Shown: positions 1,832-40,762 of the stretch, in pieces
How positions within the stretch are numbered: the first letter of the stretch is position 1
Layout of the letters: each line of letters starts with the position of its first letter
Assembly: GCF_003334765.1 (NCBI RefSeq)
Contig: NZ_QOWT01000003.1
Length of the DNA: 64,000 bases
Origin: Escherichia coli
Lineage (GTDB): Bacteria > Pseudomonadota > Gammaproteobacteria > Enterobacterales > Enterobacteriaceae
Strand: one strand, 5' to 3'
The notes under the pieces: model-generated
Seen by the model: only the letters and a program-made list of their open reading frames with translations
Database searches by the model: none
What the model was told of the DNA's origin: nothing
Position numbers and translations under genes: made by a program

Positions 1832-3457
1832 ATGAATATTTTCACAGAGGCTGCAAAACTCGAAGAGCAAAATTGTCCGTTTGCTATGGCGCAAATTGTT
1901 GATAGCCGAGGCTCGACTCCCCGCCATTCTGCACAAATGTTAGTGCGCGCCGATGGTTCTATCGTCGGTACAATTGGTGGCGGAATGGTTGAGCGGAAGG
2001 TGATTGAAGAGTCGCTTCAGGCATTGCAGGAACGTAAGCCGCGATTATTCCATGGACGTATGGCTCGTAACGGTGCGGATGCTGTCGGGTCAGATTGTGG
2101 AGGTGCAATGTCAGTATTTATCAGCGTCCATGGTATGCGTCCACGTCTGGTGTTGATTGGCGCGGGGCATGTCAACCGGGCGATAGCCCAGAGTGCGGCG
2201 CTATTAGGATTTGATATTGCCGTTGCTGATATTTATCGCGAAAGCCTCAATCCTGAACTATTCCCACCATCAACCACGCTTCTCCATGCTGAGTCGTTTG
2301 GTGCGGCAGTGGAAGCACTGGATATTCGCCCTGATAATTTTGTCCTGATTGCCACGAATAATCAGGATCGTGAAGCCCTCGACAAACTCATTGAACAGCC
2401 CATTGCATGGTTGGGGTTGCTGGCAAGTCGTCGCAAGGTTCAGCTTTTCCTGCGTCAATTGCGTGAGAAAGGCGTGGCTGAAGAACATATTGCCCGTTTA
2501 CATGCGCCCGTTGGTTACAACATAGGTGCGGAAACGCCGCAGGAGATCGCCATCAGCGTGCTGGCAGAAATATTACAGGTGAAAAATAACGCGCCGGGTG
2601 GGCTGATGATGAAACCTTCTCATCCTTCCGGACACCAGCTGGTGGTGATTCGCGGTGCGGGAGATATCGCCAGTGGTGTGGCGCTACGTCTGTATCATGC
2701 GGGTTTTAAAGTGATCATGCTGGAAGTGGAAAAACCGACAGTGATTCGTTGTACCGTGGCGTTTGCCCAGGCCGTGTTCGATGGCGAAATGACGGTCGAA
2801 GGCGTCACTGCTCGCCTGGCAACCAGCTCTGCGGAAGCGATGAAACTTACCGAACGCGGATTCATTCCTGTGATGGTAGATCCCGCCTGTTCATTGCTTG
2901 ATGAACTGAAACCGCTTTGCGTGGTGGACGCTATTCTGGCGAAACAGAATTTGGGAACGCGGGCAGATATGGCACCAGTAACAATCGCGCTTGGGCCGGG
3001 CTTTACTGCTGGGAAGGATTGTCATGCGGTAATTGAAACAAATCGCGGGCACTGGCTCGGTCAGGTGATTTACTCTGGTTGTGCGCAGGAGAATACCGGT
3101 GTTCCTGGCAATATTATGGGGCATACCACCCGACGGGTGATCCGTGCTCCTGCTGCAGGCATTATGCGATCCAACGTGAAATTAGGCGATCTGGTGAAAG
3201 AGGGCGATGTGATTGCCTGGATTGGTGAGCATGAAATTAAAGCACCGTTGACGGGGATGGTGCGTGGCTTGTTGAACGACGGCCTGGCAGTGGTTGGTGG
3301 TTTTAAAATTGGTGATATCGATCCTCGTGGTGAAACCGCTGATTTCACCAGCGTTTCTGATAAAGCCCGGGCGATTGGCGGCGGCGTACTTGAGGCGTTA
3401 ATGATGTTGATGCATCAGGGCGTGAAAGCGACAAAAGAAGTGCTGGAAGTGGCTTAA
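1832..3457 (+). CDS. yqeB: XdhC/CoxI-family molybdenum hydroxylase accessory protein YqeB
   Basis: 541-aa ORF, length and synteny match K-12 YqeB; tandem XdhC-like domains inferred from sequence pattern. Confidence 0.88.
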   Translation: MNIFTEAAKLEEQNCPFAMAQIVDSRGSTPRHSAQMLVRADGSIVGTIGGGMVERKVIEESLQALQERKPRLFHGRMARNGADAVGSDCGGAMSVFISVHGMRPRLVLIGAGHVNRAIAQSAALLGFDIAVADIYRESLNPELFPPSTTLLHAESFGAAVEALDIRPDNFVLIATNNQDREALDKLIEQPIAWLGLLASRRKVQLFLRQLREKGVAEEHIARLHAPVGYNIGAETPQEIAISVLAEILQVKNNAPGGLMMKPSHPSGHQLVVIRGAGDIASGVALRLYHAGFKVIMLEVEKPTVIRCTVAFAQAVFDGEMTVEGVTARLATSSAEAMKLTERGFIPVMVDPACSLLDELKPLCVVDAILAKQNLGTRADMAPVTIALGPGFTAGKDCHAVIETNRGHWLGQVIYSGCAQENTGVPGNIMGHTTRRVIRAPAAGIMRSNVKLGDLVKEGDVIAWIGEHEIKAPLTGMVRGLLNDGLAVVGGFKIGDIDPRGETADFTSVSDKARAIGGGVLEALMMLMHQGVKATKEVLEVA

Positions 3458-3464
3458 ATGAAAA

Positions 3465-3492
3465 TGGCCGGATGGTATTACCCACCCGGCCT
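3465..3492. repeat. 28-bp GC-rich hairpin repeat, copy 1 (tggccggatggtattacccacccggcct)
   Basis: Exact 28-bp direct repeat of the copy at 3645..3672; internal imperfect inverted repeat ggccggatgg/ccacccggcc; lies just after the yqeB stop. Confidence 0.7.
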
Positions 3493-3516
3493 GAGACTGA
3501 TGACAAACGCCAAATT

Positions 3517-3617
3517 GCCTGATGCGCTACGCTTATCAGGCCTACAAGTGCATTGCAATCTATTGAATTTGCTATGTTTTGTAGGACGGATAAGGCGCTC
3601 GCGCCGCATCCGGCATC
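3517..3617. repeat. REP/BIME-like element (two inverted REP palindromic units)
   Basis: gcctgatgcgctacgcttatcaggcctac and gtaggacggataaggcgctcgcgccgcatccggcatc resemble E. coli REP units in opposite orientations, between convergent yqeB and yqeA. Confidence 0.65.
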
Positions 3618-3644
3618 AACAAAGCGCACTTACTTGACAATCTT

Positions 3645-3672
3645 TGGCCGGATGGTATTACCCACCCGGCCT
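3645..3672. repeat. 28-bp GC-rich hairpin repeat, copy 2
   Basis: Identical to 3465..3492; lies just after the yqeA stop (minus strand). Confidence 0.7.
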
Positions 3673-3677
3673 TTAAA

Positions 3678-4610
3678 TTACTGACAAATCACCGTTCCTG
3701 TTTTGCCTTCAATCCCTTCTTTCGCTTTGCTCAATACGGTAATCAGTGCTTCACGACCTGCGCGAGAGCGAGCAAACGAGGCGGCAGCTTCCACTTTAGG
3801 CAGCATAGAACCTTTCGCAAAATGACCTTCTTCGATAAAGCGTTCAGCATCACTTAATGACAGGCGATCGAGCCACTGTTCATTCTCTTTACCGAAGTTA
3901 ATGGCCACTTTTTCTACCGCAGTCAGAATGATCAGCATATCGGCATCAATCATTTCTGCTAAACGGGCGCTGGCCCAGTCTTTATCGATAACCGCGCTGG
4001 CACCACGCAGATGGTTACCTTCACGAATAACAGGGATACCACCACCGCCAACGGTGATCACCACCTGACCTGCATCTACCAGAGCTTTAACCGTTTCTTT
4101 TTCAATGATATCAACCGGTTTTGGCGAGGCAACAACACGGCGATAGCCGCGACCAGCATCTTCTTTCAGAGTGTAACCCTGTTTTGTCAGTTGCTCTGCT
4201 TCTTGCTCGGTAAAGAACGAACCGATCGGCTTGGTCGGGTTGAGGAATGCCGGATCGTTAGCGTCGACTTCGACCTGAGTAACCAGCGTTGCTACAGGTT
4301 TATTAATGCCCCGAGAAAGCAGTTCTTCTCTTAAAGCGTTTTGTAGATCGTAACCAATATAACCCTGGCTTAATGCAACACAGACAGACATCGGCAGCAT
4401 TGGCGAGTGCGCTTCAGTTTTTGCGGCAGCTTCAAAGGCCTGGTTAATCATGCCCACCTGCGGCCCGTTACCATGAGTGACGATAACTTCATGTCCCTGG
4501 GCAATTAAATCAACAATTGCCTGAGAAGTAATTTTTACCGCTTTCATTTGCCCGGCCAGGTCATCGCCCAGCGCATTCCCGCCCAGGGCGAGAACAATTT
4601 TCTTACTCAT
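3678..4610 (-). CDS. yqeA: carbamate kinase-like protein YqeA
   Basis: 310-aa ORF; carbamate kinase/amino acid kinase family pattern (KIVLALGGNAL N-terminus); last gene of the ygeW-yqeA cluster. Confidence 0.9.
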   Translation of the reverse strand: MSKKIVLALGGNALGDDLAGQMKAVKITSQAIVDLIAQGHEVIVTHGNGPQVGMINQAFEAAAKTEAHSPMLPMSVCVALSQGYIGYDLQNALREELLSRGINKPVATLVTQVEVDANDPAFLNPTKPIGSFFTEQEAEQLTKQGYTLKEDAGRGYRRVVASPKPVDIIEKETVKALVDAGQVVITVGGGGIPVIREGNHLRGASAVIDKDWASARLAEMIDADMLIILTAVEKVAINFGKENEQWLDRLSLSDAERFIEEGHFAKGSMLPKVEAAASFARSRAGREALITVLSKAKEGIEGKTGTVICQ

Positions 4611-4657
4611 TTTTCCTCACTCATCATTCTTGATTGTGTATAGATCCCTGGCAGTGG

Positions 4658-6043
4658 TTAGAGCACGGGAGGGACAAACGGTTTGCGTCGCAGGAAACGA
4701 CCTCGCCCGGCTTTGCCTGTAAAGGTGCCGTCACAGAAAATCGTTTCACCACGGGATAAGGTTCTGACAATCGCGCCCTGACAGGTAAAACCCTCCCATG
4801 GCGAGTAGTCGGCGTTGTCGTGGAGATGGCGATGCTGAATTTGTTGGCTCTGACGTGGGTCGATAATCACCACGTCGCCGTCGGAACCGGGCGCTAATAA
4901 TCCTTTTTGCGGCCACAGGCCAAACAACCTGGCGGGCATTGCGCTGGTTAATTCAACAAAGCGTTCCGGTGTTATACGTCCCGTCATCACGCCACTGGAA
5001 AACAGTAACTGCATGCGGTTTTCCACACCGGGTAAGCCATTTGGGCAGCGACTGAAATCGCCTTTAGAAATTTGCAGGCGTTGAGCCATCGAGAAGGTGC
5101 AGTGATCGGTTGCCACCACGTCAATCGCACCATCGCTGATGCCACACCACAGTTTGTCCTGCTCGCGTACGTTACGCAGCGGTGGGCTAAGAATGAACTT
5201 CATGCCATCTTCTGTATCGTAACTGCGTTCGTCCAACAGGAGATATTGTGGGCAGGTTTCAACCCAGACTGGCTGGTGATTCGCACGGGCAAGACGCAGA
5301 TAATCCAGACCTAAGCCGTTAGACAGGTGCACGATATAGAGCGGGGCGTTACCGGCAATTTGTGCCAGGTTAATCATGCGGGCGATGGCTTCCGCTTCGC
5401 ATTCCAGAGGGCGACTCAAGGCATGATAGCGCGGCGCGGTTAACCCTGCGGCGATAAATTCCGCCCGCTTGCTGGCGATAGCCGCATCATTTTCCGGGTG
5501 CACGGTGGTCAGCGCGCCGGATTCATGCAAGCGGCGTAATGCCTGCAAAACCTCGTCATCGTTGAGTTTGTATTGATAGGTTAAATAGAGTTTAAAACTG
5601 CTCAGTCCTTCCTCGACCATCATCGGGATTTCGTCGAGGATTGCGTGATTAATGTGCTGGATCACACCGTGAAAGCTGTAATCGATGACCGCTTTATGGG
5701 CGGCATAACCACGATAAACCTCCAGTTGATGGCGTAACCGACAGCCGTTTGGGCCAAATCCCATATGGTCAATAATGGTTGTTGTACCGCCACACGCAGC
5801 TGCGCGGGTACCGGTAAAAAAATCATCACAACTGCGCGCGATGCCGACATCAATATTGAAATGCGTATGGACATCCACGCCGCCAGGGAAAACGTAACAG
5901 CCAGTGGCATCAATTTCTTCATACGGGAGCTGCGGCGAAATATTGTTGCCCAACTGGCGAACAATCCCGCTTTCAATCAGCAAATCCTGTTTGGCTTGTC
6001 CATCTGCGTTAACGACAGTGCCGTTTTTGATCAATACGCGCAT
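4658..6043 (-). CDS. hyuA: D-phenylhydantoinase / dihydropyrimidinase-family amidohydrolase HyuA (YgeZ)
   Basis: ORF track gives 4658..6055 from a TTG; an ATG at 6043 preceded by GGAG gives the 461-aa protein starting MRVLIKNG; metal-binding HxH motif (DVHTH) present. Confidence 0.9.
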   Translation of the reverse strand: MRVLIKNGTVVNADGQAKQDLLIESGIVRQLGNNISPQLPYEEIDATGCYVFPGGVDVHTHFNIDVGIARSCDDFFTGTRAAACGGTTTIIDHMGFGPNGCRLRHQLEVYRGYAAHKAVIDYSFHGVIQHINHAILDEIPMMVEEGLSSFKLYLTYQYKLNDDEVLQALRRLHESGALTTVHPENDAAIASKRAEFIAAGLTAPRYHALSRPLECEAEAIARMINLAQIAGNAPLYIVHLSNGLGLDYLRLARANHQPVWVETCPQYLLLDERSYDTEDGMKFILSPPLRNVREQDKLWCGISDGAIDVVATDHCTFSMAQRLQISKGDFSRCPNGLPGVENRMQLLFSSGVMTGRITPERFVELTSAMPARLFGLWPQKGLLAPGSDGDVVIIDPRQSQQIQHRHLHDNADYSPWEGFTCQGAIVRTLSRGETIFCDGTFTGKAGRGRFLRRKPFVPPVL

Positions 6044-6095
6044 AGCAAACTCCAAAAACCCTCCGGCGAACCGGAGGGGAATAAGTGAAGAGTAA

Positions 6096-7307
6096 TTACT
6101 CTGTTGCCAGCCAGCTTAACGGGATTGCAGCGTACATCGCGGCACAGGTCACCAGGTGAGATTTCCAGGTTTTTTCGTTAGGTGCATGCGCTTCAGGTTC
6201 TTTACCCGGGCCAAAGCCGATCACCGGAATGCCGTGACGGCCCATGATAGATACGCCGTTAGTTGAGAAGGTCCACTTATCAACAACCGGCGCTTTGCCA
6301 AACAGCCCTTCGTAGGCATTCACCAGTGCTTTAACGGTGAAGTGATCTTCTTCCACTTTCCAGGTCGGGAAGTAGCATTCGGTTGGGTAAACCAGGCCAG
6401 TCCAGGACGGACGGTCGTAGTTGTACATAGAAACAACCGCGTTAGCTTTCTGTACTGCAGGCAGGGCGCGGATTTCGTCCAGCGCGCCTTCCCAGGTTTC
6501 GCCCCAGGTCAGACGACGGTCGATTGAAACTGCGCAGCTGTCTGCTACAGCGCAACGGCTTGGGGATGTGAAGAAGATTTCAGAAACGGTGAGGGTGCCT
6601 TTGCCGAGGAATTCGTCATAACCCAGACGTTGGGAGAGTTCTTGTAATTCGCCAAGAATCGGACCCATTTTGAAAATGGCGTTATCACCGCGTTCTGGTG
6701 CAGAACCGTGGCAGCTAACACCCTGAACATCAATACGAATTTCCATACGACCGCGCTGACCACGGTATACCTGGCAGTCGGTTGGTTCGGTACTGACCAC
6801 AAATTCCGGGCGAATGCCGGATTGTTCAATAATGTACTGCCAGCACAGACCGTCGCAGTCTTCTTCCTGCACCGTACCGGTAACCAGCAGGGTATATTCA
6901 TCTTCCAGACCGAGGTCTTTAATGATTTTACCGGCATAAACCATAGAGGCCATGCCACCTTCCTGGTCGGAAGTACCGCGACCACCAATCAGTTCATCAG
7001 TTTCCATGCCTTCGTACGGATCGAAGTCCCAGTTTTTGATGTTGCCAATGCCGACGGTATCGATATGAGCGTCCATTGCCACCAGACGCGGGCCGTGGCC
7101 GATATAACCGAGAACGTTGCCCATCGGGTCGATTTCAACTTTATCGAAGCCGACTTTTTCCATCTCTTCTTTAATACGATGTACTACGCGTTTCTCGTCG
7201 CAGCTTTCACTGGGAATAGCAACCATGTCGCGCAGGAAGCGAGTCATATCCGCCTGGTAATCTTTTGCTTTTTCAAGAATCAGTTTGAATGGAATATTCT
7301 TAGCCAT
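6096..7307 (-). CDS. ygeY: M20-family peptidase/amidohydrolase YgeY
   Basis: 403-aa ORF; synteny and length match K-12 YgeY. Confidence 0.88.
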
Positions 7308-7364
7308 TATTTTTCTCCAGATTTTTTACTCCCCGTTTTGCAGGGAGCAGTTCCAATAGGGTGA

Positions 7365-8561
7365 TTAAGGTGCTACAGCGTGTTTGCCTTCCCAGACAAC
7401 TTCGCGGTAGTGCTTCACGTCGGTGTCGCCTTCAGTGCTGATAACCAGCACCACGGCATCTTTGTTCAGCGCCAGTTTTTCCATCAGGCTTTGACGTTGC
7501 GGGTGATAATGAACCGCTGCGAGAACGCCCAAACCGACAGCGCCGGATTCACCGGAGATGATGCGCGGGTCGTTGCCGTACGGATTACCCAGCACGCGCA
7601 TACCTAATGCGGCAACGCTGTCCTGGCAGGAGATGAATTGGGTGGCGCAGTTACGTAGGATTTCCCAGCCCAGCGGGTTAGGTTCGCCACAGGCCAGGCC
7701 TGCCATGATGGTGGCCATATCACCGCCAACGTTGACGATGTCGCCTTTGACGCCGGAGCGATAAATACAGTCAGCTTTGTCAGGTTCAACAATAATGCTG
7801 TGCAGATTTTGCGGGCTATAGACGTCGACCAGATAACCCAGCACACCACCGGCCATTGCTCCGACACCGGCTTGCAGCAGAACGTGCGTCGGGGTTACGC
7901 CCATTTCACGCATTTGCTCGACGGCTTCATCTGCCAGGGTTGCGTAGCCTTGCATGATCCAGGTTGGGATTTTGGTGTAACCTTCCCATGCCGTGTCCTG
8001 TACCACTTCCCAGCCGTGCTGCTGCGCGTGTTGCATGGTCAGGCGAACGGTATCGTCATAGTTCATATCCGTGACGATGCACTCGGCACCGAGGTTCAGA
8101 ATGGCGTCAACGCGTTCCTGAGCAGAACCTTTCGGCATGTAAATCACCGCATTCTGTCCGAGTTGCTGTGCTGCCCACGCCACACCGCGCCCGTGGTTGC
8201 CGTCGGTGGTGGTCGCGAAAGTCATTTTTTCGCCGATGGCATTTTTCAGGTGCTCAAATGACAGCGTTTCGATATCAAGATGATATTTTTCACACAATAA
8301 TTGAGCGATGGCGTACGCACCGCCAAGCATTTTGAAGGCGTTCAGACCGAATCGTTTTGATTCGTCTTTGACGAGAATTTTCTTCACACCAAAAAGGTTT
8401 GCGAGATCGTCCAGCGCACAAAGCGGTGTTGGGCGATAACCAGCTATTTTCTGGTGGAACTGGCGCGCCAGTTTGGCCTGGCTTTGCGAAAAGAGCGGTG
8501 ATGTTTCGCCGTTGAAAAATTTGTTATCGGCGATATCAATCTTCAATGAGAAAACGGACAT
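7365..8561 (-). CDS. ygeX: 2,3-diaminopropionate ammonia-lyase (PLP-dependent) YgeX/DpaL
   Basis: 398-aa ORF; synteny and length match K-12 YgeX. Confidence 0.9.
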   Translation of the reverse strand: MSVFSLKIDIADNKFFNGETSPLFSQSQAKLARQFHQKIAGYRPTPLCALDDLANLFGVKKILVKDESKRFGLNAFKMLGGAYAIAQLLCEKYHLDIETLSFEHLKNAIGEKMTFATTTDGNHGRGVAWAAQQLGQNAVIYMPKGSAQERVDAILNLGAECIVTDMNYDDTVRLTMQHAQQHGWEVVQDTAWEGYTKIPTWIMQGYATLADEAVEQMREMGVTPTHVLLQAGVGAMAGGVLGYLVDVYSPQNLHSIIVEPDKADCIYRSGVKGDIVNVGGDMATIMAGLACGEPNPLGWEILRNCATQFISCQDSVAALGMRVLGNPYGNDPRIISGESGAVGLGVLAAVHYHPQRQSLMEKLALNKDAVVLVISTEGDTDVKHYREVVWEGKHAVAP

Positions 8562-8618
8562 ATCCTATCCTTTTGGCCTCTGGAAATAGAGGGCCGACCA
8601 GCTGATCGGCCCGAGGGG

Positions 8619-9809
8619 TTATTTCACGCGTTCTTGCGCTTCTTTCAGCAGTTGCTCGAGCAGTGCACCTGGTTTGGCGTATTTACGGGACAGGATCATC
8701 GCGGCGATGATATAAGGCTTCCAGCTGGCTTCTTTGTAGGTAGCGATACGGTATTTTTCGAATACGCCTTCAGTCACTTCACCTTCTTTACAGGATACGC
8801 CGCTGATATCAGCTGGCAGGCAGTGCATGTACAGGGCTTCGCCATCACGGGTCAGTTCCATCATCTCTTCAGTACAATGCCAGTCTTTGTGTTGCGCGTT
8901 CTGTGCCAGACACTGTTTTTCCAGTGCTTTTAAGCCTTCGTGATCGTTCGCACGCAGCAATTCAGTACGCTCTTCCATCACTTTGTAAGGTGCCCATGAC
9001 TTCGGATAAACGATGTCTGCGTCTTTGAAGGCTTCTTCCATGCTGGTGACCTGACGGAAGCTACCACCGGAGGCTTTAGCATTGTTTTTCGCCACTTCAA
9101 CCACATCCGGGATCAGGTCGTAGCCTTCCGGATGGGCCAGGGTGACATCCATACCGAAGCGAGTCATCAGACCGATGATGCCTTGTGGTACAGAGAGCGG
9201 TTTGCCATAGCTTGGAGAGTAGGCCCAGGTCATGGCGATTTTTTTACCTTTCAGGTTTTCCAGTGAACCAAAGTGTTCACGTAACCACGCGAGGTCAGCC
9301 ATTGACTGAGTCGGGTGGTCAATATCGCATTGCAGGTTCACTAAAGCCGGACGCTGTGGCAGTACACCCTGCTTGTAACCGTCATCAAGTGCAGCGCCAA
9401 CTTCACGCATATAGGCGTTGCCTGCGCCCAGATACATATCGTCGCGAATACCAATAGCGTCGGCGCAGAAGGAGATCATATTGGCGGTTTCACGCACGGT
9501 TTCGCCGTGAGCGATTTGTGATTTGCCTTCGTCGAGATCTTGTTGTGCAAGGCCGAGCAGGTTAAGCGCGGAAGCATAAGAGAAGCGGGTACGGGTGGAG
9601 TTGTCGCGGAATACGGAAATACCTAATCCACTATTAAAGACTTTGGTTGAGATGTTTTCAGCACGCAGTGCTTTTAATGCTGCGGCAACGTCCAGTACTT
9701 GTTTCAGTTCATCTGGCGTCTGTTCCCACGTTAACAAAAAATCTTTCTCGTGAAGGTGAGAGGTCAGCGAATTGATATCCTTAATCAGCTCATTAACAGT
9801 TTTCATCAT
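8619..9809 (-). CDS. ygeW: YgeW, transcarbamylase-family protein of uncertain substrate
   Basis: 396-aa ORF; aspartate/ornithine carbamoyltransferase fold family by sequence pattern; first gene of a co-directional five-gene cluster. Confidence 0.9.
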   Translation of the reverse strand: MMKTVNELIKDINSLTSHLHEKDFLLTWEQTPDELKQVLDVAAALKALRAENISTKVFNSGLGISVFRDNSTRTRFSYASALNLLGLAQQDLDEGKSQIAHGETVRETANMISFCADAIGIRDDMYLGAGNAYMREVGAALDDGYKQGVLPQRPALVNLQCDIDHPTQSMADLAWLREHFGSLENLKGKKIAMTWAYSPSYGKPLSVPQGIIGLMTRFGMDVTLAHPEGYDLIPDVVEVAKNNAKASGGSFRQVTSMEEAFKDADIVYPKSWAPYKVMEERTELLRANDHEGLKALEKQCLAQNAQHKDWHCTEEMMELTRDGEALYMHCLPADISGVSCKEGEVTEGVFEKYRIATYKEASWKPYIIAAMILSRKYAKPGALLEQLLKEAQERVK

Positions 9810-10284
9810 AAAGTCCCGGTAGTGGAATGACAGGCAAAGTGGTTTATTTCACTGTGACTTGCCAAAGTGATTGGTGTTTTCACAGCTATACCTGGGACTA
9901 ACAATAAGTGTGCCAGAATTATCCGCGCGGCTGCAAAAGACTAATTTGACGGATAATGTGTGGGGTTGATCACAAATTGATGCCAGCTTCTGGTTGTTTG
10001 TAAAATACGAAAACGTTTGGCTTTTTTTATCGCGTTATTTATTTGCTGCTAAGTATCAGAAATAAGATAAAGGGGCAGGCTATCTCTCTTCAGTTTGATA
10101 AACTCACCGCCGTAATTCTCATATTGATATAGAAATGTGATATCTCTTCCATAATTTCATTAGAAAATGATAAAAATCTTATGTTTTTATCAAAGCCAAT
10201 TTCGCCTGAGTTAATATCATCATGATCTGTGAACCATCAACGTCTTCAATGATCGACTTTTAAGTAAGTCTGGAAGGTAAAGCT

Positions 10285-12063
10285 ATGGAGCTTGCTACTA
10301 CGCAGTCAGTATTGATGCAAATTCAACCGACAATTCAGCGTTTTGCCAGAATGCTTGCCAGCGTTTTGCAGCTTGAGGTTGAGATCGTTGATGAAAACTT
10401 GTGTCGCGTTGCCGGAACGGGCGCGTATGGGAAGTTTCTTGGTCGCCAGTTGAGCGGCAACTCACGCCTGCTCCGCCACGTCCTGGAAACGAAAACTGAA
10501 AAAGTTGTGACACAGTCTCGCTTCGATCCCCTTTGCGAAGGTTGCGATAGTAAAGAAAATTGCCGCGAAAAAGCATTTCTGGGTACGCCTGTCATTTTAC
10601 AGGATCGTTGTGTTGGGGTGATAAGTTTGATTGCCGTTACCCACGAGCAACAAGAGCATATCAGTGATAATTTACGCGAATTTTCTGATTATGTTCGCCA
10701 TATATCCACCATTTTTGTTTCGAAACTTCTGGAGGATCAGGGGCCAGGAGATAACATCAGTAAAATATTTGCGACCATGATCGATAATATGGATCAGGGC
10801 GTATTAGTTGTAGATGATGAAAATCGGGTTCAGTTTGTTAATCAGACTGCCTTAAAAACACTTGGTGTTGTGCAAAATAATATTATTGGGAAACCTATCC
10901 GTTTCAGACCATTAACATTTGAGAGTAATTTTACCCATGGACATATGCAGCATATTGTTTCATGGGACGATAAAAGTGAATTAATCATTGGTCAATTGCA
11001 TAACATTCAGGGCCGACAATTATTTTTAATGGCGTTTCACCAATCGCATACCAGTTTTTCTGTAGCAAATGCACCTGATGAACCGCATATTGAACAATTG
11101 GTTGGCGAGTGCCGTGTTATGCGGCAATTAAAACGACTCATTAGCCGTATTGCACCCAGCCCATCCAGCGTTATGGTGGTTGGTGAAAGCGGCACGGGTA
11201 AAGAAGTCGTCGCCCGTGCAATCCATAAGTTGAGCGGAAGACGGAATAAACCCTTTATTGCTATCAACTGTGCCGCGATTCCGGAGCAGCTTCTGGAGAG
11301 CGAACTGTTCGGTTATGTTAAAGGTGCATTTACTGGCGCTTCTGCCAACGGTAAAACAGGGTTGATTCAGGCGGCGAATACGGGCACGCTGTTTCTCGAT
11401 GAAATAGGTGATATGCCATTAATGTTGCAGGCTAAATTACTGCGCGCTATTGAGGCACGTGAAATTCTGCCGATTGGTGCCAGTAGCCCAATACAAGTCG
11501 ACATTCGCATCATTTCTGCAACTAATCAGAATTTGGCCCAGTTCATTGCCGAAGGTAAATTCCGCGAAGATCTCTTCTACCGACTTAATGTTATCCCGAT
11601 AACTCTGCCACCGCTGCGTGAACGTCAGGAAGATATTGAACTATTGGTGCATTACTTTTTACATCTGCATACCCGTCGTCTGGGATCGGTTTATCCTGGC
11701 ATTGCTCCCGATGTCGTCGAAATATTGCGTAAGCATCGTTGGCCCGGAAACCTGCGCGAGTTAAGCAATTTGATGGAATATCTGGTTAACGTGGTTCCTT
11801 CAGGTGAAGTTATCGACAGCACGCTATTGCCGCCAAATCTGCTGAATAATGGCACAACGGAGCAAAGTGATGTAACAGAGGTCAGTGAGGCGCACCTGTC
11901 ACTCGATGATGCGGGCGGCACGGCGCTGGAGGAGATGGAAAAGCAAATGATCCGCGAGGCGCTTTCACGTCATAACAGCAAGAAGCAAGTTGCTGATGAA
12001 CTGGGCATCGGCATTGCTACGCTCTATCGCAAGATTAAGAAATATGAGTTGTTAAACACATAA
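10285..12063 (+). CDS. ygeV: sigma54-dependent transcriptional activator YgeV
   Basis: 592-aa ORF; AAA+ sigma54-interaction domain (GESGTGKE Walker A, ESELFGY motif) and C-terminal HTH; N-terminal sensory domain. Confidence 0.93.
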   Translation: MELATTQSVLMQIQPTIQRFARMLASVLQLEVEIVDENLCRVAGTGAYGKFLGRQLSGNSRLLRHVLETKTEKVVTQSRFDPLCEGCDSKENCREKAFLGTPVILQDRCVGVISLIAVTHEQQEHISDNLREFSDYVRHISTIFVSKLLEDQGPGDNISKIFATMIDNMDQGVLVVDDENRVQFVNQTALKTLGVVQNNIIGKPIRFRPLTFESNFTHGHMQHIVSWDDKSELIIGQLHNIQGRQLFLMAFHQSHTSFSVANAPDEPHIEQLVGECRVMRQLKRLISRIAPSPSSVMVVGESGTGKEVVARAIHKLSGRRNKPFIAINCAAIPEQLLESELFGYVKGAFTGASANGKTGLIQAANTGTLFLDEIGDMPLMLQAKLLRAIEAREILPIGASSPIQVDIRIISATNQNLAQFIAEGKFREDLFYRLNVIPITLPPLRERQEDIELLVHYFLHLHTRRLGSVYPGIAPDVVEILRKHRWPGNLRELSNLMEYLVNVVPSGEVIDSTLLPPNLLNNGTTEQSDVTEVSEAHLSLDDAGGTALEEMEKQMIREALSRHNSKKQVADELGIGIATLYRKIKKYELLNT

Positions 12064-12073
12064 CCTCAGTGAA

Positions 12074-12104
12074 TCCGGCCTGAATTCAGGCCGGATATCC
12101 TTTT
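12074..12104. terminator. palindromic hairpin between convergent ygeV and xdhC (likely bidirectional terminator)
   Basis: Perfect inverted repeat tccggcctgaa/ttcaggccgga followed by tatcctttt on the plus strand; sits between the ygeV stop and xdhC stop. Confidence 0.55.
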
Positions 12105-12582
12105 ACTTCGTTTTCTCGCAATCCAGAACTGTATTTACAATCATCTGATACCCCGTGCAGCGACAAAGATTTCCCGCCAGTCCGCGACGAATTTCCGTAA
12201 TGGTTAATGGCTTCTCGCGTGGTTTCGCCAGCATTGCCGTGGTAGCCATAATCAGGCCAGGCGTACAAAACCCGCACTGCACTGCGCCGGATTTCGCATA
12301 AGCCTGCTGAACATGAGAAAGTTTTCCGCCTTTCGCTTCACCTTCCAGCGTGCGGATCTCTTTTCCTTCAGCCCAGGCGGCAAGGTATAAGCAACTGTCT
12401 ATTGCTGTGCCGTCGACCAACACCGTACAGGCACCACATTCACCCACGCAGCACCCTTGTTTGACACTTAGCAGTCCTTGTTCGCGGAGTAATTCCGAGA
12501 GCGGCGTGCCTGGTGCGGCGTGAAGCTGAAAAGGCATCCCGTTAATGGTGCATTCGATGGTAATTGTTTCGCTGTGATTCAT
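12103..12582 (-). CDS. xdhC: xanthine dehydrogenase iron-sulfur subunit
   Basis: 159-aa ORF with 2Fe-2S cysteine clusters ([16 protein letters not shown]); overlaps the xdhB stop by 4 nt. Confidence 0.93.
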
Positions 12583-13457
12583 TGCAATTTTCCCCCCGCC
12601 GCGGCGACGGCTTCGCTAATCACTTTTTTGGTCATCGTCTGGATGAGATGCAGACGAAACTCTTTACTGGCCCGCCATGAAGAACGCGGGGCGACATCTT
12701 GCAGGACAGATTCGCTGATAGCTTCCAGCGTTTGCAGGTTTAATGGCGCATTTTGTGCAGTCTGTTCGGCATGTTGGCAGCGAATCGGCGTTGGCGCGGC
12801 AACACCAAATGCCAGGCGTAATTCGCTGAAATTGCCGTTATCCAGTCGGCAATGTGCGGCGCAGCCAATCGTTGAAATATCCATTGCGTCGCGCATGGCA
12901 TATTTAAAATGCGCGCTGCCCGCGTGTTCTTTCGGCTGTGGCGGAAAATGAAAGGCGACGAGGATTTCGTCATGCTCAAGAGACACTTTGCCCGGCCCGG
13001 TGTGAAAGCCATTAATCGGGACGAAACGAACACCGCGCGGGGAGTGGATCTCCAGTTTCGCGTCATAAATTAGCGTTGGCGTGGCAGAATCTGCGCTGGT
13101 GGCACCGTTGCAAATATTTCCACCGTAGGTAGCGACGTTACGGATCTGCGGTCCAGCAATGGACGTGGCCGCAGCACATAACGCCGGGAGATGACGTTGA
13201 GTTATAGGATCTTCTATTAGCTGGGTAAATGTCGTTGCAGAGCCGATACGTAGCGAGCCATCTTCCGCCAGCGTAATTCCCCGCAGCTCCGCCAGATTAT
13301 GAATATCAACAATATGGCGATAACGGTCATTGTGATGGTGGAGCTGAATCAGTACGTCAGTGCCACCGGCGAGCAGTTTGGCCTGCGGGTTGTCAGCCAG
13401 CAGGTTGATGGCATCGGCAAGGGTTGCTGCGCGATGGTAAGAAGCAAAATCAAACAT
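12579..13457 (-). CDS. xdhB: xanthine dehydrogenase FAD-binding subunit
   Basis: 292-aa ORF; synteny xdhA-xdhB-xdhC. Confidence 0.93.
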
Positions 13458-13467
13458 GATGTTATCC

Positions 13468-15726
13468 TCAAATCAATCCTGCCAGATGGAACTCTTCATA
13501 TAACCGTTTTGGCGTCAGCGGCAGTGTATTGATTGCAACACCGGTAGCCATCTTCACCGCGTTACGAATAGCAGCGGCAACAGGAATTATTGGTGGCTCA
13601 CCCAGTGACTTATGTCCGTATGCGGATTGCGGCTCATTGATTTCGACGAACGCGCTTTCCAGTTGTGGCAGATCCGGCATGGTCGGCATTTTGTAATCCA
13701 GCAGATTGGGGTTACGGACCACGCCGCTTTTAGCATCGATGATCATCTCTTCAAATAGCGCCCAGCCAATGCCCATTCCCATTCCGCCGTGTACCTGACC
13801 TTCTGCCAGCAGTGGATTAAGAATATGCCCTGAATCATGAACGTTGAGGATGCGGTTGATGGTGACTTTGCACAGCGCAATATCGACCGTCAGATCAACA
13901 AAGGTACAGCCAAACGCCGGTGGGTTAGTGGTGGTTTTGATGGAGCTTTCAGCAGAGAGCTGCCCGCCGCGTTCAGGGTGGTAGAAAGCGTCCATCGCCA
14001 AATCTTTTAACGACATTAACGGCTCTTCCGGTCGTTCAACCAGCACGATATGGCCTTTTATCAGGGTCAGATTCATCGCTGACTGATGTAGCATGACTGC
14101 GGCGTGAGCGATGATTTTCTCTTTTAATAATAGTGCCGCACTGCGCAGCGCAGGCGCGGCAACATAGCTCTGGCGTGAGGCAAATGCGCCGGGATCGAAC
14201 GGCGTAACGTCGGTATCTTGAGTTGAAATAACGCGAACGTCGCTGACCGGAACCCCCACGGTTTCTGCCACCATTTGCGAGAAGACGGTGTCGGCACCCT
14301 GACCGATTTCCGTCGCGCCGCTTTGCACGTTGATGGTTCCATCCTGATTCATCAGAAGGCGCGCGCCTGCTATTTCTACGCCGACAGGCCAGGTGTTAGA
14401 GGTGTAGCTAAAACAGGCGACGCCAACGCCGCGGCGCAAATTGCCTTGCTGGTTCTGGCATTCTGCACGGCGTTTTTCCCATTCAAAGATTTTCCGGCCT
14501 TTTTCAAGACACTCCGGCAACCCTGCGCTGTAAATACGTTTGCCCGTGAGCGGATTAGCATCTCCTTCGCGGGCGGCGTTGCGTAAACGAATTTCAACAG
14601 GATCAATACCTAACGCTGTCGCGGCGTCATCAAGCATAGACTCAACGGCAAATACGACTTGTGGCGCGCCATAACCACGCATCGCACCAGCCGAGGGGAG
14701 GTTGGTATAGCAGGTCTTTGAACTGTAAGCGTAGGCACAACGAGGATAAAGGTAAGCGACTTTATTCCCCCCCGCAGAAGCGATGGAGTGCCCGTGAGAT
14801 GCATAAGCGCCGGTGTTAGACAGAACATCCAGACTATAACCTTTCAATGTTCCGTCGCGGTTCACGCCCATTTGCCCGTCAATGGTAAAAGCGTGGCGGG
14901 TACGGGTTGCGAGGAAACACTCTTCACGGCTAAGGGAAACTTTCACCGGAATGCCGCCAAGCTTGCTGGTCAGGAATGCCGCCATTGGCTCTTCCAGTAC
15001 ATCCTGTTTATTACCAAAACCGCCACCGACAAATGGTTTGATGACTCGTACGCATGACCAGGGAATATCCAGCGCCTGACCAACCACGCGGCGAACAATG
15101 TGCGGGATCTGGGTGCTGGAAACGATGGTAATTCGCGAGTCATCCTCCATCCACGCCAGCGATGTTACGCTTTCCATGTGACAATGTTGAATAACGGGGG
15201 TCTGATAGTGCCCCTGTACCTGGTAGTCGGCGGCATCGATTGTTTGTTGGACATTACCCGTCGACATCGTGCTTTGTTTCAGTAAATTGCCACCGTTATG
15301 GATTGGTGCAGCGTCTTCTGCCAGCGCCGCTTCTGGCGTGGTGATAACGGGTAATTCTTGCCACTCAATGCTGACCAATTGCGCCGCTTTTTCTGCCGTG
15401 AGTTCATCGCGGGCCACGACGATGGCAACGGCGTCACCATGATGACGAACATGGCGAGTTAGCAGTGCGCGATCGGCGGTATCGCGCTTGTTTTCGTCAA
15501 GTGTCCAGGCATGCCCAGCTGTAGCGAATGGAATATCAGGCACATCTTCCCAGGTAAAAATCGCCAGTACGCCCGGCAAACTTCTGGCTTGTTCATCATT
15601 AATACTTACGGCATAACCATGTGCGATAGGGCTACGTACATATTTCGCATAACACATGCCCGCCATAACATAATCGTCAGTATATCGTGCCCGCCCGGTG
15701 ACCTTAGCAATGGCATCGACGCGCAT
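13468..15726 (-). CDS. xdhA: xanthine dehydrogenase molybdenum-binding subunit
   Basis: ORF track extends to 15765, but the internal ATG giving MRVDAIAKVTG yields the 752-aa length recalled for XdhA. Confidence 0.92.
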   Translation of the reverse strand: MRVDAIAKVTGRARYTDDYVMAGMCYAKYVRSPIAHGYAVSINDEQARSLPGVLAIFTWEDVPDIPFATAGHAWTLDENKRDTADRALLTRHVRHHGDAVAIVVARDELTAEKAAQLVSIEWQELPVITTPEAALAEDAAPIHNGGNLLKQSTMSTGNVQQTIDAADYQVQGHYQTPVIQHCHMESVTSLAWMEDDSRITIVSSTQIPHIVRRVVGQALDIPWSCVRVIKPFVGGGFGNKQDVLEEPMAAFLTSKLGGIPVKVSLSREECFLATRTRHAFTIDGQMGVNRDGTLKGYSLDVLSNTGAYASHGHSIASAGGNKVAYLYPRCAYAYSSKTCYTNLPSAGAMRGYGAPQVVFAVESMLDDAATALGIDPVEIRLRNAAREGDANPLTGKRIYSAGLPECLEKGRKIFEWEKRRAECQNQQGNLRRGVGVACFSYTSNTWPVGVEIAGARLLMNQDGTINVQSGATEIGQGADTVFSQMVAETVGVPVSDVRVISTQDTDVTPFDPGAFASRQSYVAAPALRSAALLLKEKIIAHAAVMLHQSAMNLTLIKGHIVLVERPEEPLMSLKDLAMDAFYHPERGGQLSAESSIKTTTNPPAFGCTFVDLTVDIALCKVTINRILNVHDSGHILNPLLAEGQVHGGMGMGIGWALFEEMIIDAKSGVVRNPNLLDYKMPTMPDLPQLESAFVEINEPQSAYGHKSLGEPPIIPVAAAIRNAVKMATGVAINTLPLTPKRLYEEFHLAGLI

Positions 15727-15820
15727 GCATGATTCACCCGTAGCGGTTGCTTCCCGCGCTTCCATAGAAATCCCCTCGATTTGAACATTTGGTTCTTATG
15801 GCAAAGATTTAGTCTAAGCA

Positions 15821-15837
15821 GGCAAGATTTACGCCAG
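15821..15837 (-). promoter_or_regulatory. candidate sigma54 (-24/-12) promoter for xdhABC
   Basis: Minus strand reads cTGGCGTaaatcTTGCc: GG and GC separated by 10 nt as in the TGGCAC-N5-TTGC consensus; about 95 nt upstream of the xdhA start; ygeV (sigma54 activator) is adjacent. Confidence 0.5.
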
Positions 15838-17087: not shown

Positions 17088-17200
17088 ATTTATCTTCGCC
17101 GTAATACTTCCCCATTTTGTTGTAAATAAAAAGCGTTTACGCAATGCAATCCTTTTGTAACAACCCAGGTAAAACACCTTATTTTCAAGTTGTTAAATAA

Positions 17201-18853
17201 GTGGTTATCTACGCTTTTAACAAACGATTGATGGAATATTTTATGAAAGGGAAATCTGCATTAACTCTTCTGCTCGCTGGTATATTTTCGTGCGGCACAT
17301 GCCAGGCGACAGGGGCAGAAGTGACGAGTGAATCTGTATTTAACATTCTTAATTCCACGGGGGCAGCAACAGATAAAAGTTATTTATCGTTAAATCCAGA
17401 TAAGTATCCTAATTATCGTCTTCTGATTCACTCAGCCAAATTACAAAATGAAATAAAGAGCCACTATACCAAAGACGAAATTCAAGGATTGCTAACATTA
17501 ACAGAAAACACACGAAAGTTAACGTTGACGGAGAAACCCTGGGGAACGTTTATTCTTGCTTCTACTTTCGAAGATGACAAAACAGCGGCAGAAACCCACT
17601 ATGATGCTGTCTGGTTGAGGGATAGTTTATGGGGCTATATGGCATTAGTATCAGATCAGGGAAATAGTGTAGCCGCAAAAAAGGTTCTGCTCACCCTGTG
17701 GGATTATATGTCTACGCCCGACCAGATTAAGCGGATGCAGGACGTCATTAGCAACCCAAAACGACTGGATGGAATTCCCGTGCAAATGAATGCTGTGCAT
17801 ATCCGATTTGACAGCAACTCCCCCGTGATGGCAGATGTGCAGGAAGAAGGCAAGCCGCAGCTGTGGAACCATAAACAAAATGATGCTTTAGGTCTTTACC
17901 TTGATCTCCTTATACAAGCAATCAACACTGGTACTATTAACGCTGAAGATTGGCAAAAAGGTGACCGATTAAAGTCGGTTGCGCTGCTGATTGCTTATCT
18001 GGATAAAGCCAATTTCTATGTTATGGAAGATTCCTGAGCATGGGAAGAAGATGCCCGATTAAACACATCTTCCGTTGCACTGGTGACCTCTGGACTGGAA
18101 CGTTTGTCAAACCTACTCTCGAAGAAAGACTCTGTTTTTGTCTCTGATTTACTACGCGAAGCTAAAGTCAATGAACTGGATGAAACTCTTTCAACAACGA
18201 GGTTGAACCACCTCATAGATAAAGGTTATGAAAGAATAACGTTACAGCTTGATTTAGGGGGAGAATCCCCAGGTTATCTGGAAAAAGATAAACATTACAG
18301 AGAAGCCGATGCGGCTTTACTTAATGTTATTTATCCTACAAATCTTTCAAAGATAAACACCAGAAGAAAAGAGCAAGTTCTAAAAATAGTTAAAAAACTA
18401 GCAGGTCCGTATGGTATAAAAAGATACGAGAAGGATAATTATCAGTCGGCAAATTTTTGGTTCAATGATATTAAAACCGATACCGATCAAAATTCGCATG
18501 CAAAAAGAGAAAAGAGCTTCATTCCATCAACAGAAGCAGAATGGTTTTTTGACTCATGGTATGCAAAATCAGCAGCAATTGTTTATAAAGAATCAAGAAA
18601 AGAAGAGTATTTGAATGACTCAGTACAATTTATGAATAGATCATTGGCCCAAATAACAGGCGAGAATATGATTGGTGCAAATGGCAGGAGCGTACCAGAA
18701 ATGGCACTTCCCGAAAGCTATAACTATATCCACAAGTCGGGAACTTTGCATGAAGCGCCAAGCCCTATCATTCCGCTAAATTGGTCGAAAGCTTCAATGA
18801 CTCTCATGTTGAAAGAGATGTCCAACCTTATCAATGATGAGGGAATTAAATAG
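17201..18853 (+). pseudogene. ygeQ: glycoside hydrolase family 15-like lipoprotein, interrupted by in-frame TGA (ygeQ-like)
   Basis: Two ORFs (17201..18037, 18083..18853) in the same frame separated by a single TGA at 18035..18037; GH15-like WEE...NTSS motif immediately after the stop; N-terminal signal/lipobox-like segment. Confidence 0.75.
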
Positions 18854-18984
18854 TTTTCATAATGAGTTACAGCACAACGTTGGGTATTGACTGAGCAAGA
18901 TGAACGACAAGGACAACGACATCAGCCTTATGAGGAGCAAGAAAATGAAAGCAAATTCGAAAACGATCAGAAGGATGAAAGTTA

Positions 18985-19932
18985 ATGTTCGGTCTGAGGA
19001 CAGTAAATCGAAACACTCATACGTTTGAAACCACTTTTCAAAATTGGAAAGAAAATGGCGAAGATGTTGCATTATTAATGCCCGAATTTAGTGCTAAATG
19101 GCTACCGATAGCAGAAGAGAGTGGCAGCTGGTCTGGATGGGTATTGCTTGGAGAAATATTTCCCTTAATTTCATCTGAGCTCGCTGGGATGGCTTTAATG
19201 CCAGAAACGGAAAGGTTAATAGGGGAATGCCTCAGTTTATCCAGTTCCCCGTTAAATCTAAAGCATCCTGAACTAAAATATAATCGTTTGCGCGTAGGTA
19301 AAGTATTTGATGGAGTATTGAGCCCTGCTCAACCACTAATAAGAATATGGACAGGGGAATTGAATCTTTGGTTAGATAAAGTCACAGTCTGCCAATACGG
19401 AAACGCTCCAGCGTTAGACAAAAAATCGTTATATTGCTCCATTCATTTTGTAATTGGATTTAGTAAAACATGTTACAGAAGTCTTGTTGATATTGAAGTT
19501 GGTGATGTTTTATTAATCTCAAATAATTTGGCTTATGCGGTTGTTTATAATACAAAAATTTGTGATTTAATTTATCCAGAGGAGTTAAAAATGGCTGATC
19601 ATTTTGAGTACGAGGAAGATTTTGAAACAGATGATTTTGATATCAAAAAAAACGAGAGTGAGATTTATGATGAAAATGACGATCAGATGATTAATAGTTT
19701 TGAAGACTTGCCTGTAAAAATTGAGTTTGTTCTTGGTAAGAAAATAATGAATCTATATGAAATAGACGAACTCTGTGCAAAAAGAATAATATCTCTGCTT
19801 TCTGAATCTGAGAAAAATATAGAAATACGTGTAAATGGCGCGCTAACTGGCTATGGCGAACTTGTTGAAGTGGATGATAAATTGGGCGTAGAGATTCATT
19901 CTTGGTTATCAGGGCATAATAATGTCAAATAG
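18985..19932 (+). CDS. epaO: T3SS cytoplasmic sorting platform/C-ring protein (SctQ; SpaO/YscQ family)
   Basis: 315 aa; C-terminal SpoA-like region (VKIEFVLGKK...EIRVNGALTGYGELVEVDDKLGVEI); acidic linker; immediately precedes the sctRSTU homologs. Confidence 0.8.
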   Translation: MFGLRTVNRNTHTFETTFQNWKENGEDVALLMPEFSAKWLPIAEESGSWSGWVLLGEIFPLISSELAGMALMPETERLIGECLSLSSSPLNLKHPELKYNRLRVGKVFDGVLSPAQPLIRIWTGELNLWLDKVTVCQYGNAPALDKKSLYCSIHFVIGFSKTCYRSLVDIEVGDVLLISNNLAYAVVYNTKICDLIYPEELKMADHFEYEEDFETDDFDIKKNESEIYDENDDQMINSFEDLPVKIEFVLGKKIMNLYEIDELCAKRIISLLSESEKNIEIRVNGALTGYGELVEVDDKLGVEIHSWLSGHNNVK

Positions 19933-40494: not shown

Positions 40495-40635
40495 ATACCT
40501 GTAGATCATCATAATCCATATCATGGTTATGAAATAATCCATATTAATTATCAATTAATGAACTTTATGAATTTTATCTGCTGTAAAATTAGGTGGTTAA
40601 TAATAATCTCAATAATTCAACTTAATTTGAAAATT

Positions 40636-40700
40636 GGAATATCCATCACATAACGACATGTCGCAGCAATTTAATCCATATTTATGCTGTTTCCGACCTG
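40636..40700 (+). promoter_or_regulatory. araE promoter control region (candidate CRP site and tandem AraC half-sites)
   Basis: tggaatatccatcaca resembles a CRP half-consensus; agcaatttaatccata and tgctgtttccgacctga resemble araI1/araI2-type direct repeats; about 60-130 nt upstream of the araE ATG. Confidence 0.5.
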
Positions 40701-40762
40701 ACACCTGCGTGAGTTGTTCACGTATTTTTTCACTATGTCTTACTCTCTGCTGGCAGGAAAAA

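Follow-up and report, generated by a model that had tools for sequence, protein, structure and literature searches.

The ygeW-ygeX-ygeY-hyuA-yqeA module of Escherichia coli very probably encodes the lower part of anaerobic reductive uric-acid degradation, with ATP gained through a transcarbamylase and a carbamate kinase

A stretch of 64,000 nucleotides (nt) from Escherichia coli (contig NZ_QOWT01000003.1 of assembly GCF_003334765.1; the whole stretch is called the window below) carries a run of five genes, ygeW, ygeX, ygeY, hyuA, and yqeA, and the question raised by this locus is which compound their products break down and how ATP could be gained from it. A preliminary description, made from the DNA letters, had pictured an anaerobic purine- or pyrimidine-derived route in which the transcarbamylase YgeW acts phosphorolytically on a carbamoylated intermediate and the carbamate kinase YqeA makes ATP from the carbamoyl phosphate. 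We conclude with high confidence that the module is the lower half of the anaerobic reductive uric-acid (2,8-dioxopurine) pathway, with the transcarbamylase and the carbamate kinase yielding ATP. This function is already known, having been published in 2025, so that nothing new is learned from the window about the main point; a useful contribution that remains is independent sequence support for the disputed order in which two ureido groups are cleaved.

The interval 3400–10000 of the window was compared with E. coli chromosomes and matches many complete genomes at 100% identity. It contains all five genes, each on the minus strand and in the same orientation, with the following open reading frame calls:

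8619–9806 (or to 9809 with the first of the tandem ATGs as start), minus strand, ygeW
7365–8561, minus strand, ygeX (dpaL)
6096–7307, minus strand, ygeY
4658–6043, minus strand, hyuA
3678–4610, minus strand, yqeA (annotated arcC)

All five frames are intact, running from ATG to TAA with zero internal stops; a clear Shine-Dalgarno motif is found in four of the five, and the intergenic gaps, in order from ygeW to yqeA, measure 57, 57, 52, and 47 nt. The five same-strand, tightly spaced genes first described, for which no strand had been stated, are thus confirmed, on the minus strand and with gaps of 47–57 nt. It should be noted that the ygeW start consists of two tandem ATGs (9806–9809), the second of which is used by RefSeq (395 aa) and the first by the K-12, review, and Protein Data Bank (PDB) numbering (396 aa), and that residue numbers shift by one between the two.

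Family assignments were made by NCBIfam profile search with the curated cut-off of each family model. YgeW scores 825 bits against NF005538 (cut-off 453), YgeX 651 bits against the diaminopropionate ammonia-lyase model TIGR03528 (cut-off 532), YgeY 722 bits against TIGR03526 (cut-off 321), HyuA 675 bits against the D-hydantoinase/dihydropyrimidinase model TIGR02033 (cut-off 393), and YqeA 386 bits against the carbamate kinase model TIGR00746 (cut-off 358). All five proteins therefore lie above the cut-offs of the family models that define the lower module of the 2,8-dioxopurine pathway, and the gene identities originally proposed hold. YgeW matches PDB entry 3q98 over its full length (E=2.9e-269) and carries the motifs STRTR at 70, HPTQ at 164, and HCLP at 328, which place it in the transcarbamylase superfamily, together with R122 and other published active-site residues; the K363 of a 2015 review is a Trp in the 396-aa numbering, with the Lys as the next residue, probably because of an off-by-one in the review listing. 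The 3q98 structure has been described as knotted, in a subgroup with AOTCase, SOTCase, and YTCase whose hallmark is a trefoil-knotted C-terminal domain with a proline-rich loop, and YgeW joins this subgroup through its sequence match to 3q98. Against the OTCase model it reaches 133 bits, below the cut-off of 281; its nearest solved relatives outside its own subfamily are the N-acetylornithine transcarbamylases (AOTCases; remote, ∼74 bits), with which it has the carboxylate-anchoring Lys and Gln/Glu in common. The nearest solved relatives of YgeY, an M20 amidohydrolase, are ArgE and DapE. HyuA has an HxH metal motif at residue 59, is annotated as a D-phenylhydantoinase, and scores best against the dihydropyrimidinase model, and YqeA aligns with the E. 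faecalis carbamate kinase 1b7b over residues 1–296 (E=5.5e-90), which puts it in the ArcC family.

In this pathway, XdhD-YgfM, YgfK, and SsnA act first: urate is reduced to 2,8-dioxopurine, which loses its aromaticity and has its six-membered ring opened, with 5-ureidomethylhydantoin as the product. HyuA, a D-stereospecific hydantoinase, then opens the hydantoin ring of this compound to give (R)-2,3-diureidopropionate, from which YgeW and phosphate remove one of the two ureido groups, most probably that at position 3, to leave carbamoyl phosphate and (R)-3-amino-2-ureidopropionate. With carbamoyl phosphate and ADP as substrates, YqeA forms ATP and carbamate; one ATP is gained from each urate, and the unfavorable YgeW equilibrium is drawn forward. 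YgeY hydrolyzes the second ureido group to give 2,3-diaminopropionate, and in the last step the pyridoxal phosphate-dependent YgeX breaks this compound down into pyruvate and two ammonia.

The enzyme activities, the intermediates, the formation of ATP, the mutant phenotypes, and sigma-54 binding at this locus are all established by published experiment. Liu et al. (bioRxiv 10.1101/2025.04.24.650524, a preprint) traced isotopes in C. sporogenes and in mutants of E. coli MG1655, and with purified E. coli enzymes they reconstituted the conversion of urate to pyruvate in vitro. In their assays, ATP is formed from 2,3-diureidopropanoate, Mg, and ADP when YgeW and YqeA are present together, neither alone being sufficient, and the same reaction yields a mono-ureido product; YqeA stimulates YgeW by using up carbamoyl phosphate, a coupling that the authors liken to the arginine deiminase pathway. 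Li et al. (Life Metab 2025, PMC12507026) carried out an independent reconstitution with E. coli and C. difficile enzymes. In earlier work, labeled urate was no longer converted to acetate in E. coli ygeW, ygeX, ygeY, and hyuA deletions; mutants accumulate the matching urate-derived intermediates, and the ygeX mutant builds up diaminopropionate, which YgeX turns into pyruvate. The two enzymatic proposals of the preliminary description are accordingly borne out, phosphorolysis of a carbamoylated intermediate by YgeW in the assays of both groups and ATP formation from carbamoyl phosphate by YqeA in those of Liu et al. Its broader suggestion of a purine- or pyrimidine-derived anaerobic route is right as to purine, given the labeled urate and the deletion mutants, and wrong as to pyrimidine, the substrate being urate.

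The notion of YgeW as a catabolic transcarbamylase predates the 2025 papers: the conserved cluster had been tabulated already in 2008, the 2011 structure paper bears the phrase "knotted ancestral catabolic transcarbamylase" for YgeW in its title, and a 2018 review held that its role was most likely to provide carbamoyl phosphate for ATP, from a substrate that was then unknown. The pathway matters because gut anaerobes, E. coli included, dispose through it of about one third of human urate, namely, the part excreted into the intestine, and the YgeW/YqeA step explains the payoff for the bacterium, which gains one ATP from each urate and has a fitness benefit in mice. It is relevant to gout and to engineered uricolytic probiotics.

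The immediate surroundings fit this assignment. An annotated E. coli reference locus (strain 2452), 100% identical over the 6.6-kb query, was used for neighbor annotation. On the high-coordinate side of the module lie ygeV (10285–12063, plus strand) and then xdhCBA (12103–15765, minus strand), so that the neighbors xdhABC and a sigma-54 activator, reported at the outset, are indeed found there. On the low-coordinate side are yqeB/yqeC/mocA and the ygfK promoter; beyond these, in the annotation of the reference locus, come ygfK, ssnA, ygfM, xdhD, and the urate transporter gene uacT, just past the low-coordinate end of the window. The module is thus clustered with the genes of the upper pathway (xdhD-ygfM, ygfK, ssnA) and with the urate transporter gene.

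Several points weigh against the picture as a whole. The functional claims depend on two papers of 2025, of which one is a preprint, and urate is consumed by E. coli K-12 only in particular media under anaerobic conditions. A commentary of November 2025 lists the order of ureido cleavage as an open question, and Li et al. report results in favor of the opposite order, described below. Finally, the ygeY/hyuA gap holds a hairpin resembling a terminator, and the YgeV-iModulon gene list, in the part of that source available to us, does not name yqeA, which makes a common transcript of all five genes uncertain.

To consider expression, three features upstream of ygeW are needed:

9900–9916, minus strand, sigma-54 (−24/−12) element CTGGCACACTTATTGTT, ∼94 nt upstream of the ygeW start
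9959–9974, minus strand, CRP-like half-palindrome TGTGATCAACCCCACA, a pattern match upstream of the sigma-54 element
10285–12063, plus strand, ygeV, a divergent sigma-54 enhancer-binding protein gene whose product is the presumed activator of the module

The pattern TGGCAC-N5-TTGT at 9915–9900 (minus strand) is one of just three one-mismatch matches in the 64 kb, its −12 element being TTGT, not TTGC. Letter for letter, the site equals OS30, the chromatin immunoprecipitation sequencing (ChIP-seq) site assigned to ygeW (Bonocora 2015); an RpoN peak from genomic SELEX (systematic evolution of ligands by exponential enrichment) lies in the same ygeV-ygeW spacer, over the sigma-54 site, and the element is invariant in the uropathogenic E. 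coli (UPEC) strain 536. The correctly spaced −24/−12 element and the neighboring gene for an enhancer-binding protein, YgeV, are features of a sigma-54-dependent operon. YgeV itself comprises an N-terminal sensor region followed by PAS, AAA+, and helix-turn-helix domains (Pfam Sigma54_activat, 2.1e-70; PAS_8, 1.5e-6; HTH_8, 3e-13). The published sigma-54 ChIP-seq motifs of xdhA (CTGGCGTAAATCTTGCC) and ygfK (GTGGTGCGATTGTTGCT) are found in the window at 15821–15837 and 84–100, respectively, both on the minus strand, so that three sigma-54 promoters flank ygeV within 16 kb; taken together, the xdhA, ygfK, and ygeW sites fit a YgeV regulon.

A YgeV iModulon has been described, and ygfT expression is reduced in a ygeV mutant; the iModulon gene list includes ygeW, ygeX, ygeY, and hyuA. 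Li et al. mention that the spacer holds a native Crp site and that glucose represses the use of urate, and the CRP-like match at 9959–9974 may well be that site. A search of the ygeV-ygeW spacer for inverted repeats that could serve as YgeV sites gave one weak AT-rich palindrome and nothing more, and an Rfam scan of 3300–10400 (E<=1) detected neither a riboswitch nor a leader element in the 94 nt ahead of ygeW. We infer that YgeV activates the ygeW promoter directly, that the CRP-like match is correctly assigned, and that transcription reads through into hyuA-yqeA. Transcription would then start from the sigma-54 promoter 94 nt upstream of ygeW, presumably activated by YgeV and modulated by CRP, and would pass the hairpin-containing gaps to a hairpin terminator shared with the convergent yqeB.

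Three of the gaps hold predicted RNA hairpins:

8591–8612, minus strand, GC-rich 9-bp hairpin in the ygeW/ygeX gap, with no U-run (centroid −18.3 kcal/mol; gap invariant in UPEC 536)
7327–7349, minus strand, 9-bp hairpin in the ygeX/ygeY gap (z = −2.8; 0/200 shuffles fold as well; gap invariant in UPEC 536)
6054–6078, minus strand, 8-bp GC hairpin followed by UUUUU in the ygeY/hyuA gap (z = −2.8; the U-run runs into the hyuA ribosome-binding site)

Compared with UPEC 536, the coding DNA of the module differs at 189 of 5916 positions (3.2%), with just 10 amino-acid changes, whereas the four gaps together differ at a single position of 213 (Fisher p = 0.009 versus coding) and the promoter elements are invariant. 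Since the gaps are far less diverged than the coding DNA, they are under constraint, which suggests that the gap hairpins matter as functional RNA elements in the module. The last of the three, judged by its stem and U-run, looks like an intrinsic terminator or attenuator, and the sole UPEC 536 change, which falls in this gap, makes the U-run longer.

The strongest competing explanation is one of transcript structure: ygeWXY would be a sigma-54 operon ending at the hairpin before hyuA, with hyuA-yqeA expressed separately or through partial read-through. The GC stem with its U5 run, the sequence constraint on the gaps, and the absence of yqeA from the accessible iModulon list all speak for such a division, as does the name "ygeWXY operon" used in the literature, which fits a hairpin placed before hyuA. 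On the other hand, hyuA shares the YgeV iModulon with ygeWXY, the stem is short and its U-run overlaps the hyuA ribosome-binding site, and all five products work in one pathway; moreover, a scan for sigma-70 promoters returned four sites versus 6.2 in shuffles, none of them in the internal gaps of the module, leaving no sigma-70-like promoter in the ygeY/hyuA or hyuA/yqeA gap. We regard two separate units as a genuine possibility but the less probable one. Because of the hairpin before hyuA and the missing yqeA entry, co-transcription of all five genes is nonetheless not established, and the carbamate kinase gene yqeA may be less tightly co-regulated than the rest of the module.

A related source of variation is found at the other end:

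3465–3672, minus strand, 3′ end of the module, with a 28-nt terminator hairpin present twice (3645–3672 and 3465–3492) around two elements of the repetitive extragenic palindromic (REP) type

The two copies of the 28-nt hairpin, TGGCCGGATGGTATTACCCACCCGGCCT, lie 180 nt apart in the convergent yqeB/yqeA spacer; the yqeA-proximal copy is without a U-run, and the copy that bears the U-run is 180 nt further downstream. Many E. coli genomes, UPEC 536 among them, have a single-hairpin "empty site" form, and the window therefore carries a polymorphic 180-bp insertion of the REP or bacterial interspersed mosaic element (BIME) type with a 28-bp duplication. From its sequence, the uninterrupted single-hairpin form can be read as a bidirectional terminator between the convergent yqeA and yqeB. 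The same Rfam scan yielded only two sub-threshold matches to REP-derived small RNAs (3538–3620). That the hairpin before hyuA splits the module into differently expressed ygeWXY and hyuA-yqeA parts, and that the REP insertion, which in K-12-type strains shifts the U-run-bearing hairpin copy 180 nt downstream, varies yqeA expression by strain, is a tentative idea that we consider rather unlikely; if true, such hairpin and REP effects could be part of the reason why strains differ in urate consumption, a variation that Liu et al. noted without an explanation.

Whatever the transcript structure, the assignment of the module to the lower half of the urate pathway leaves two possible orders of cleavage, and on these the published papers disagree, with YgeW removing the 3-ureido group according to Liu et al. 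and the 2-ureido group, to give albizziin, according to Li et al. In the latter scheme the pathway is the same, YgeW phosphorolyzing the 2-ureido (N-alpha) group and YgeY hydrolyzing the 3-ureido group. In the work of Li et al., the product formed from 5-ureidomethylhydantoin by C. difficile HyuA, E. coli YgeW, and phosphate co-elutes with commercial L-albizziin, YgeY and YgeX together convert L-albizziin to pyruvate, and albizziin accumulates in an overexpression strain. However, the passages of their text and supplement available to us contain no standard of the other isomer, and by the chromatography of Liu et al. the two mono-ureido isomers overlap as a doublet. Liu et al. used custom-synthesized (R) and (S) 3-amino-2-ureidopropanoate standards, obtained only the M+1 product on tracing with [1,3-15N2]-urate, observed strict (R) selectivity of YgeW, and ran the reaction in reverse, E. 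coli YgeW and carbamoyl phosphate turning authentic (R)-3-amino-2-ureidopropanoate back into the diureido compound; the tracing, the authentic standards, and the reverse reaction all indicate the 3-ureido group.

The relationships of the two enzymes point the same way. The substrates of AOTCases are N-alpha-acyl amino acids, which are modified at the distal amine, and ArgE and DapE are N-alpha-deacylases. Because 2,3-diureidopropionate is a shortened analogue of an N-acyl-citrulline, the action of YgeW followed by YgeY mirrors that of AOTCase and ArgE reversed, which predicts that the 3-ureido group leaves first; the homology thus suits the order opposite to that of Li et al., although it is an argument by inference and not proof. 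With the isotope data and the homology (YgeW nearest AOTCase, YgeY nearest ArgE/DapE) in agreement, we favor cleavage of the 3-ureido group first and consider the order of Liu et al. probable, and the albizziin order unlikely.

Two further readings concern the substrate. In the first, the genes would form a hydantoinase-carbamoylase module for pyrimidines, for exogenous 5-substituted hydantoins, or for D-amino-acid production, with no link to urate; the D-phenylhydantoinase annotation of HyuA and its best score against the dihydropyrimidinase model would suit this, as would the fact that YgeY is an M20 amidohydrolase, as are L-carbamoylases. Labeled urate passes through these enzymes, however, mutants accumulate urate-derived intermediates, and the cluster is set among purine transport and oxidation genes, and on these three grounds we reject the reading as very improbable, side activities on other hydantoins being possible. 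The older hypothesis, which is also the oxamate analogy of the preliminary description in its literal form, cast YgeW as oxamate transcarbamylase and YqeA as carbamate kinase in the anaerobic breakdown of allantoin. Attractive in that the oxamate and urate routes are both purine-derived and both end in carbamoyl phosphate and ATP, it is hardly credible any longer, being ruled out by negative published YgeW assays and by the classical transcarbamylase fold of YgeW, which is not of the AllFGH type: the E. coli oxamate transcarbamylase is AllFGH, unrelated in sequence to YgeW, a 2022 paper names ybcF as the catabolic carbamate kinase of the allantoin route, and the real YgeW substrate has since been identified (Liu et al.).

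The module assigned here to urate degradation is widespread in the species. Of 5426 complete E. coli genomes searched with a coding-only query, 5161 contain the entire module and 247 give no match whatsoever, so that it is missing from ∼5%. One such loss can be followed in strain ET358, where, in the corresponding locus (7046–9042), an IS1A abuts a truncated ygfT and just 42 nt of the 5′ end of ygeW are left; the IS1-associated deletion extends from inside ygfT through ygeW and removes the whole urate-degradation island, ygeV and xdhABC being kept. One of the 5183 matching places for the coding-only query is on a record classed as a plasmid, which may reflect capture of the F-prime type or else an artifact of assembly or classification. 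At a greater distance, the reference locus is annotated at its positions 33844–41904 (which would correspond to approximately 17200–25300 of the window) with degenerate type III secretion genes (ETT2-like), several of them frameshifted or partial, located a few kb past xdhA and a tRNA-Gly.

How the module compares with known systems can now be stated. With the 2,8-dioxopurine pathway there is no substantive difference: it is the same locus, the recombinant enzymes in both 2025 papers being the E. coli K-12 ygeW, ygeX, ygeY, hyuA, and yqeA products, and the 3′ end here additionally carries the polymorphic 180-bp REP insertion. The arginine deiminase pathway (ArcB and ArcC) is alike in coupling a phosphorolytic transcarbamylase to a carbamate kinase for substrate-level ATP, and YqeA matches the arcC equivalog model; unlike that pathway, the substrate here is a urate-derived diureido acid, not citrulline, and YgeW groups with the knotted AOTCase and SOTCase, not with the OTCases. 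In the annotation of the reference locus, the cluster contains no arginine deiminase (arcA-type) gene and no arginine/ornithine antiporter gene, and it is not an arginine deiminase operon; the module works like an arginine deiminase module yet is not a member of that class. The anaerobic allantoin/oxalurate route (AllFGH with ybcF) is, like the urate module, a purine-derived, anaerobic route of E. coli in which a ureido compound is cleaved by phosphate and ATP is gained via a carbamate kinase, but ring opening there is oxidative, by way of allantoin, whereas it is reductive in the urate module, and the three-subunit AllFGH has no similarity to YgeW and is encoded at a separate locus.

The Xanthomonas-type arginine pathway (ArgF′/ArgE) supplies the nearest solved homologues of YgeW and YgeY, and the chemistry of the urate module is formally its reverse, running from an N-alpha-acyl omega-ureido acid through an N-alpha-acyl diamino acid to the free diamino acid. 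The Xanthomonas-type pathway is biosynthetic where the present one is catabolic and works on a C5 rather than a C3 chain, with an acetyl group and an L substrate in place of the carbamoyl acyl group and the D (R) substrate found here. Reductive pyrimidine catabolism and the industrial hydantoinase-carbamoylase process, finally, share with the module a cyclic amidohydrolase that opens a ring to an N-carbamoyl acid, followed by decarbamoylation; in those routes the carbamoyl group is merely hydrolyzed, whereas here one of the two is kept as carbamoyl phosphate and turned into ATP.

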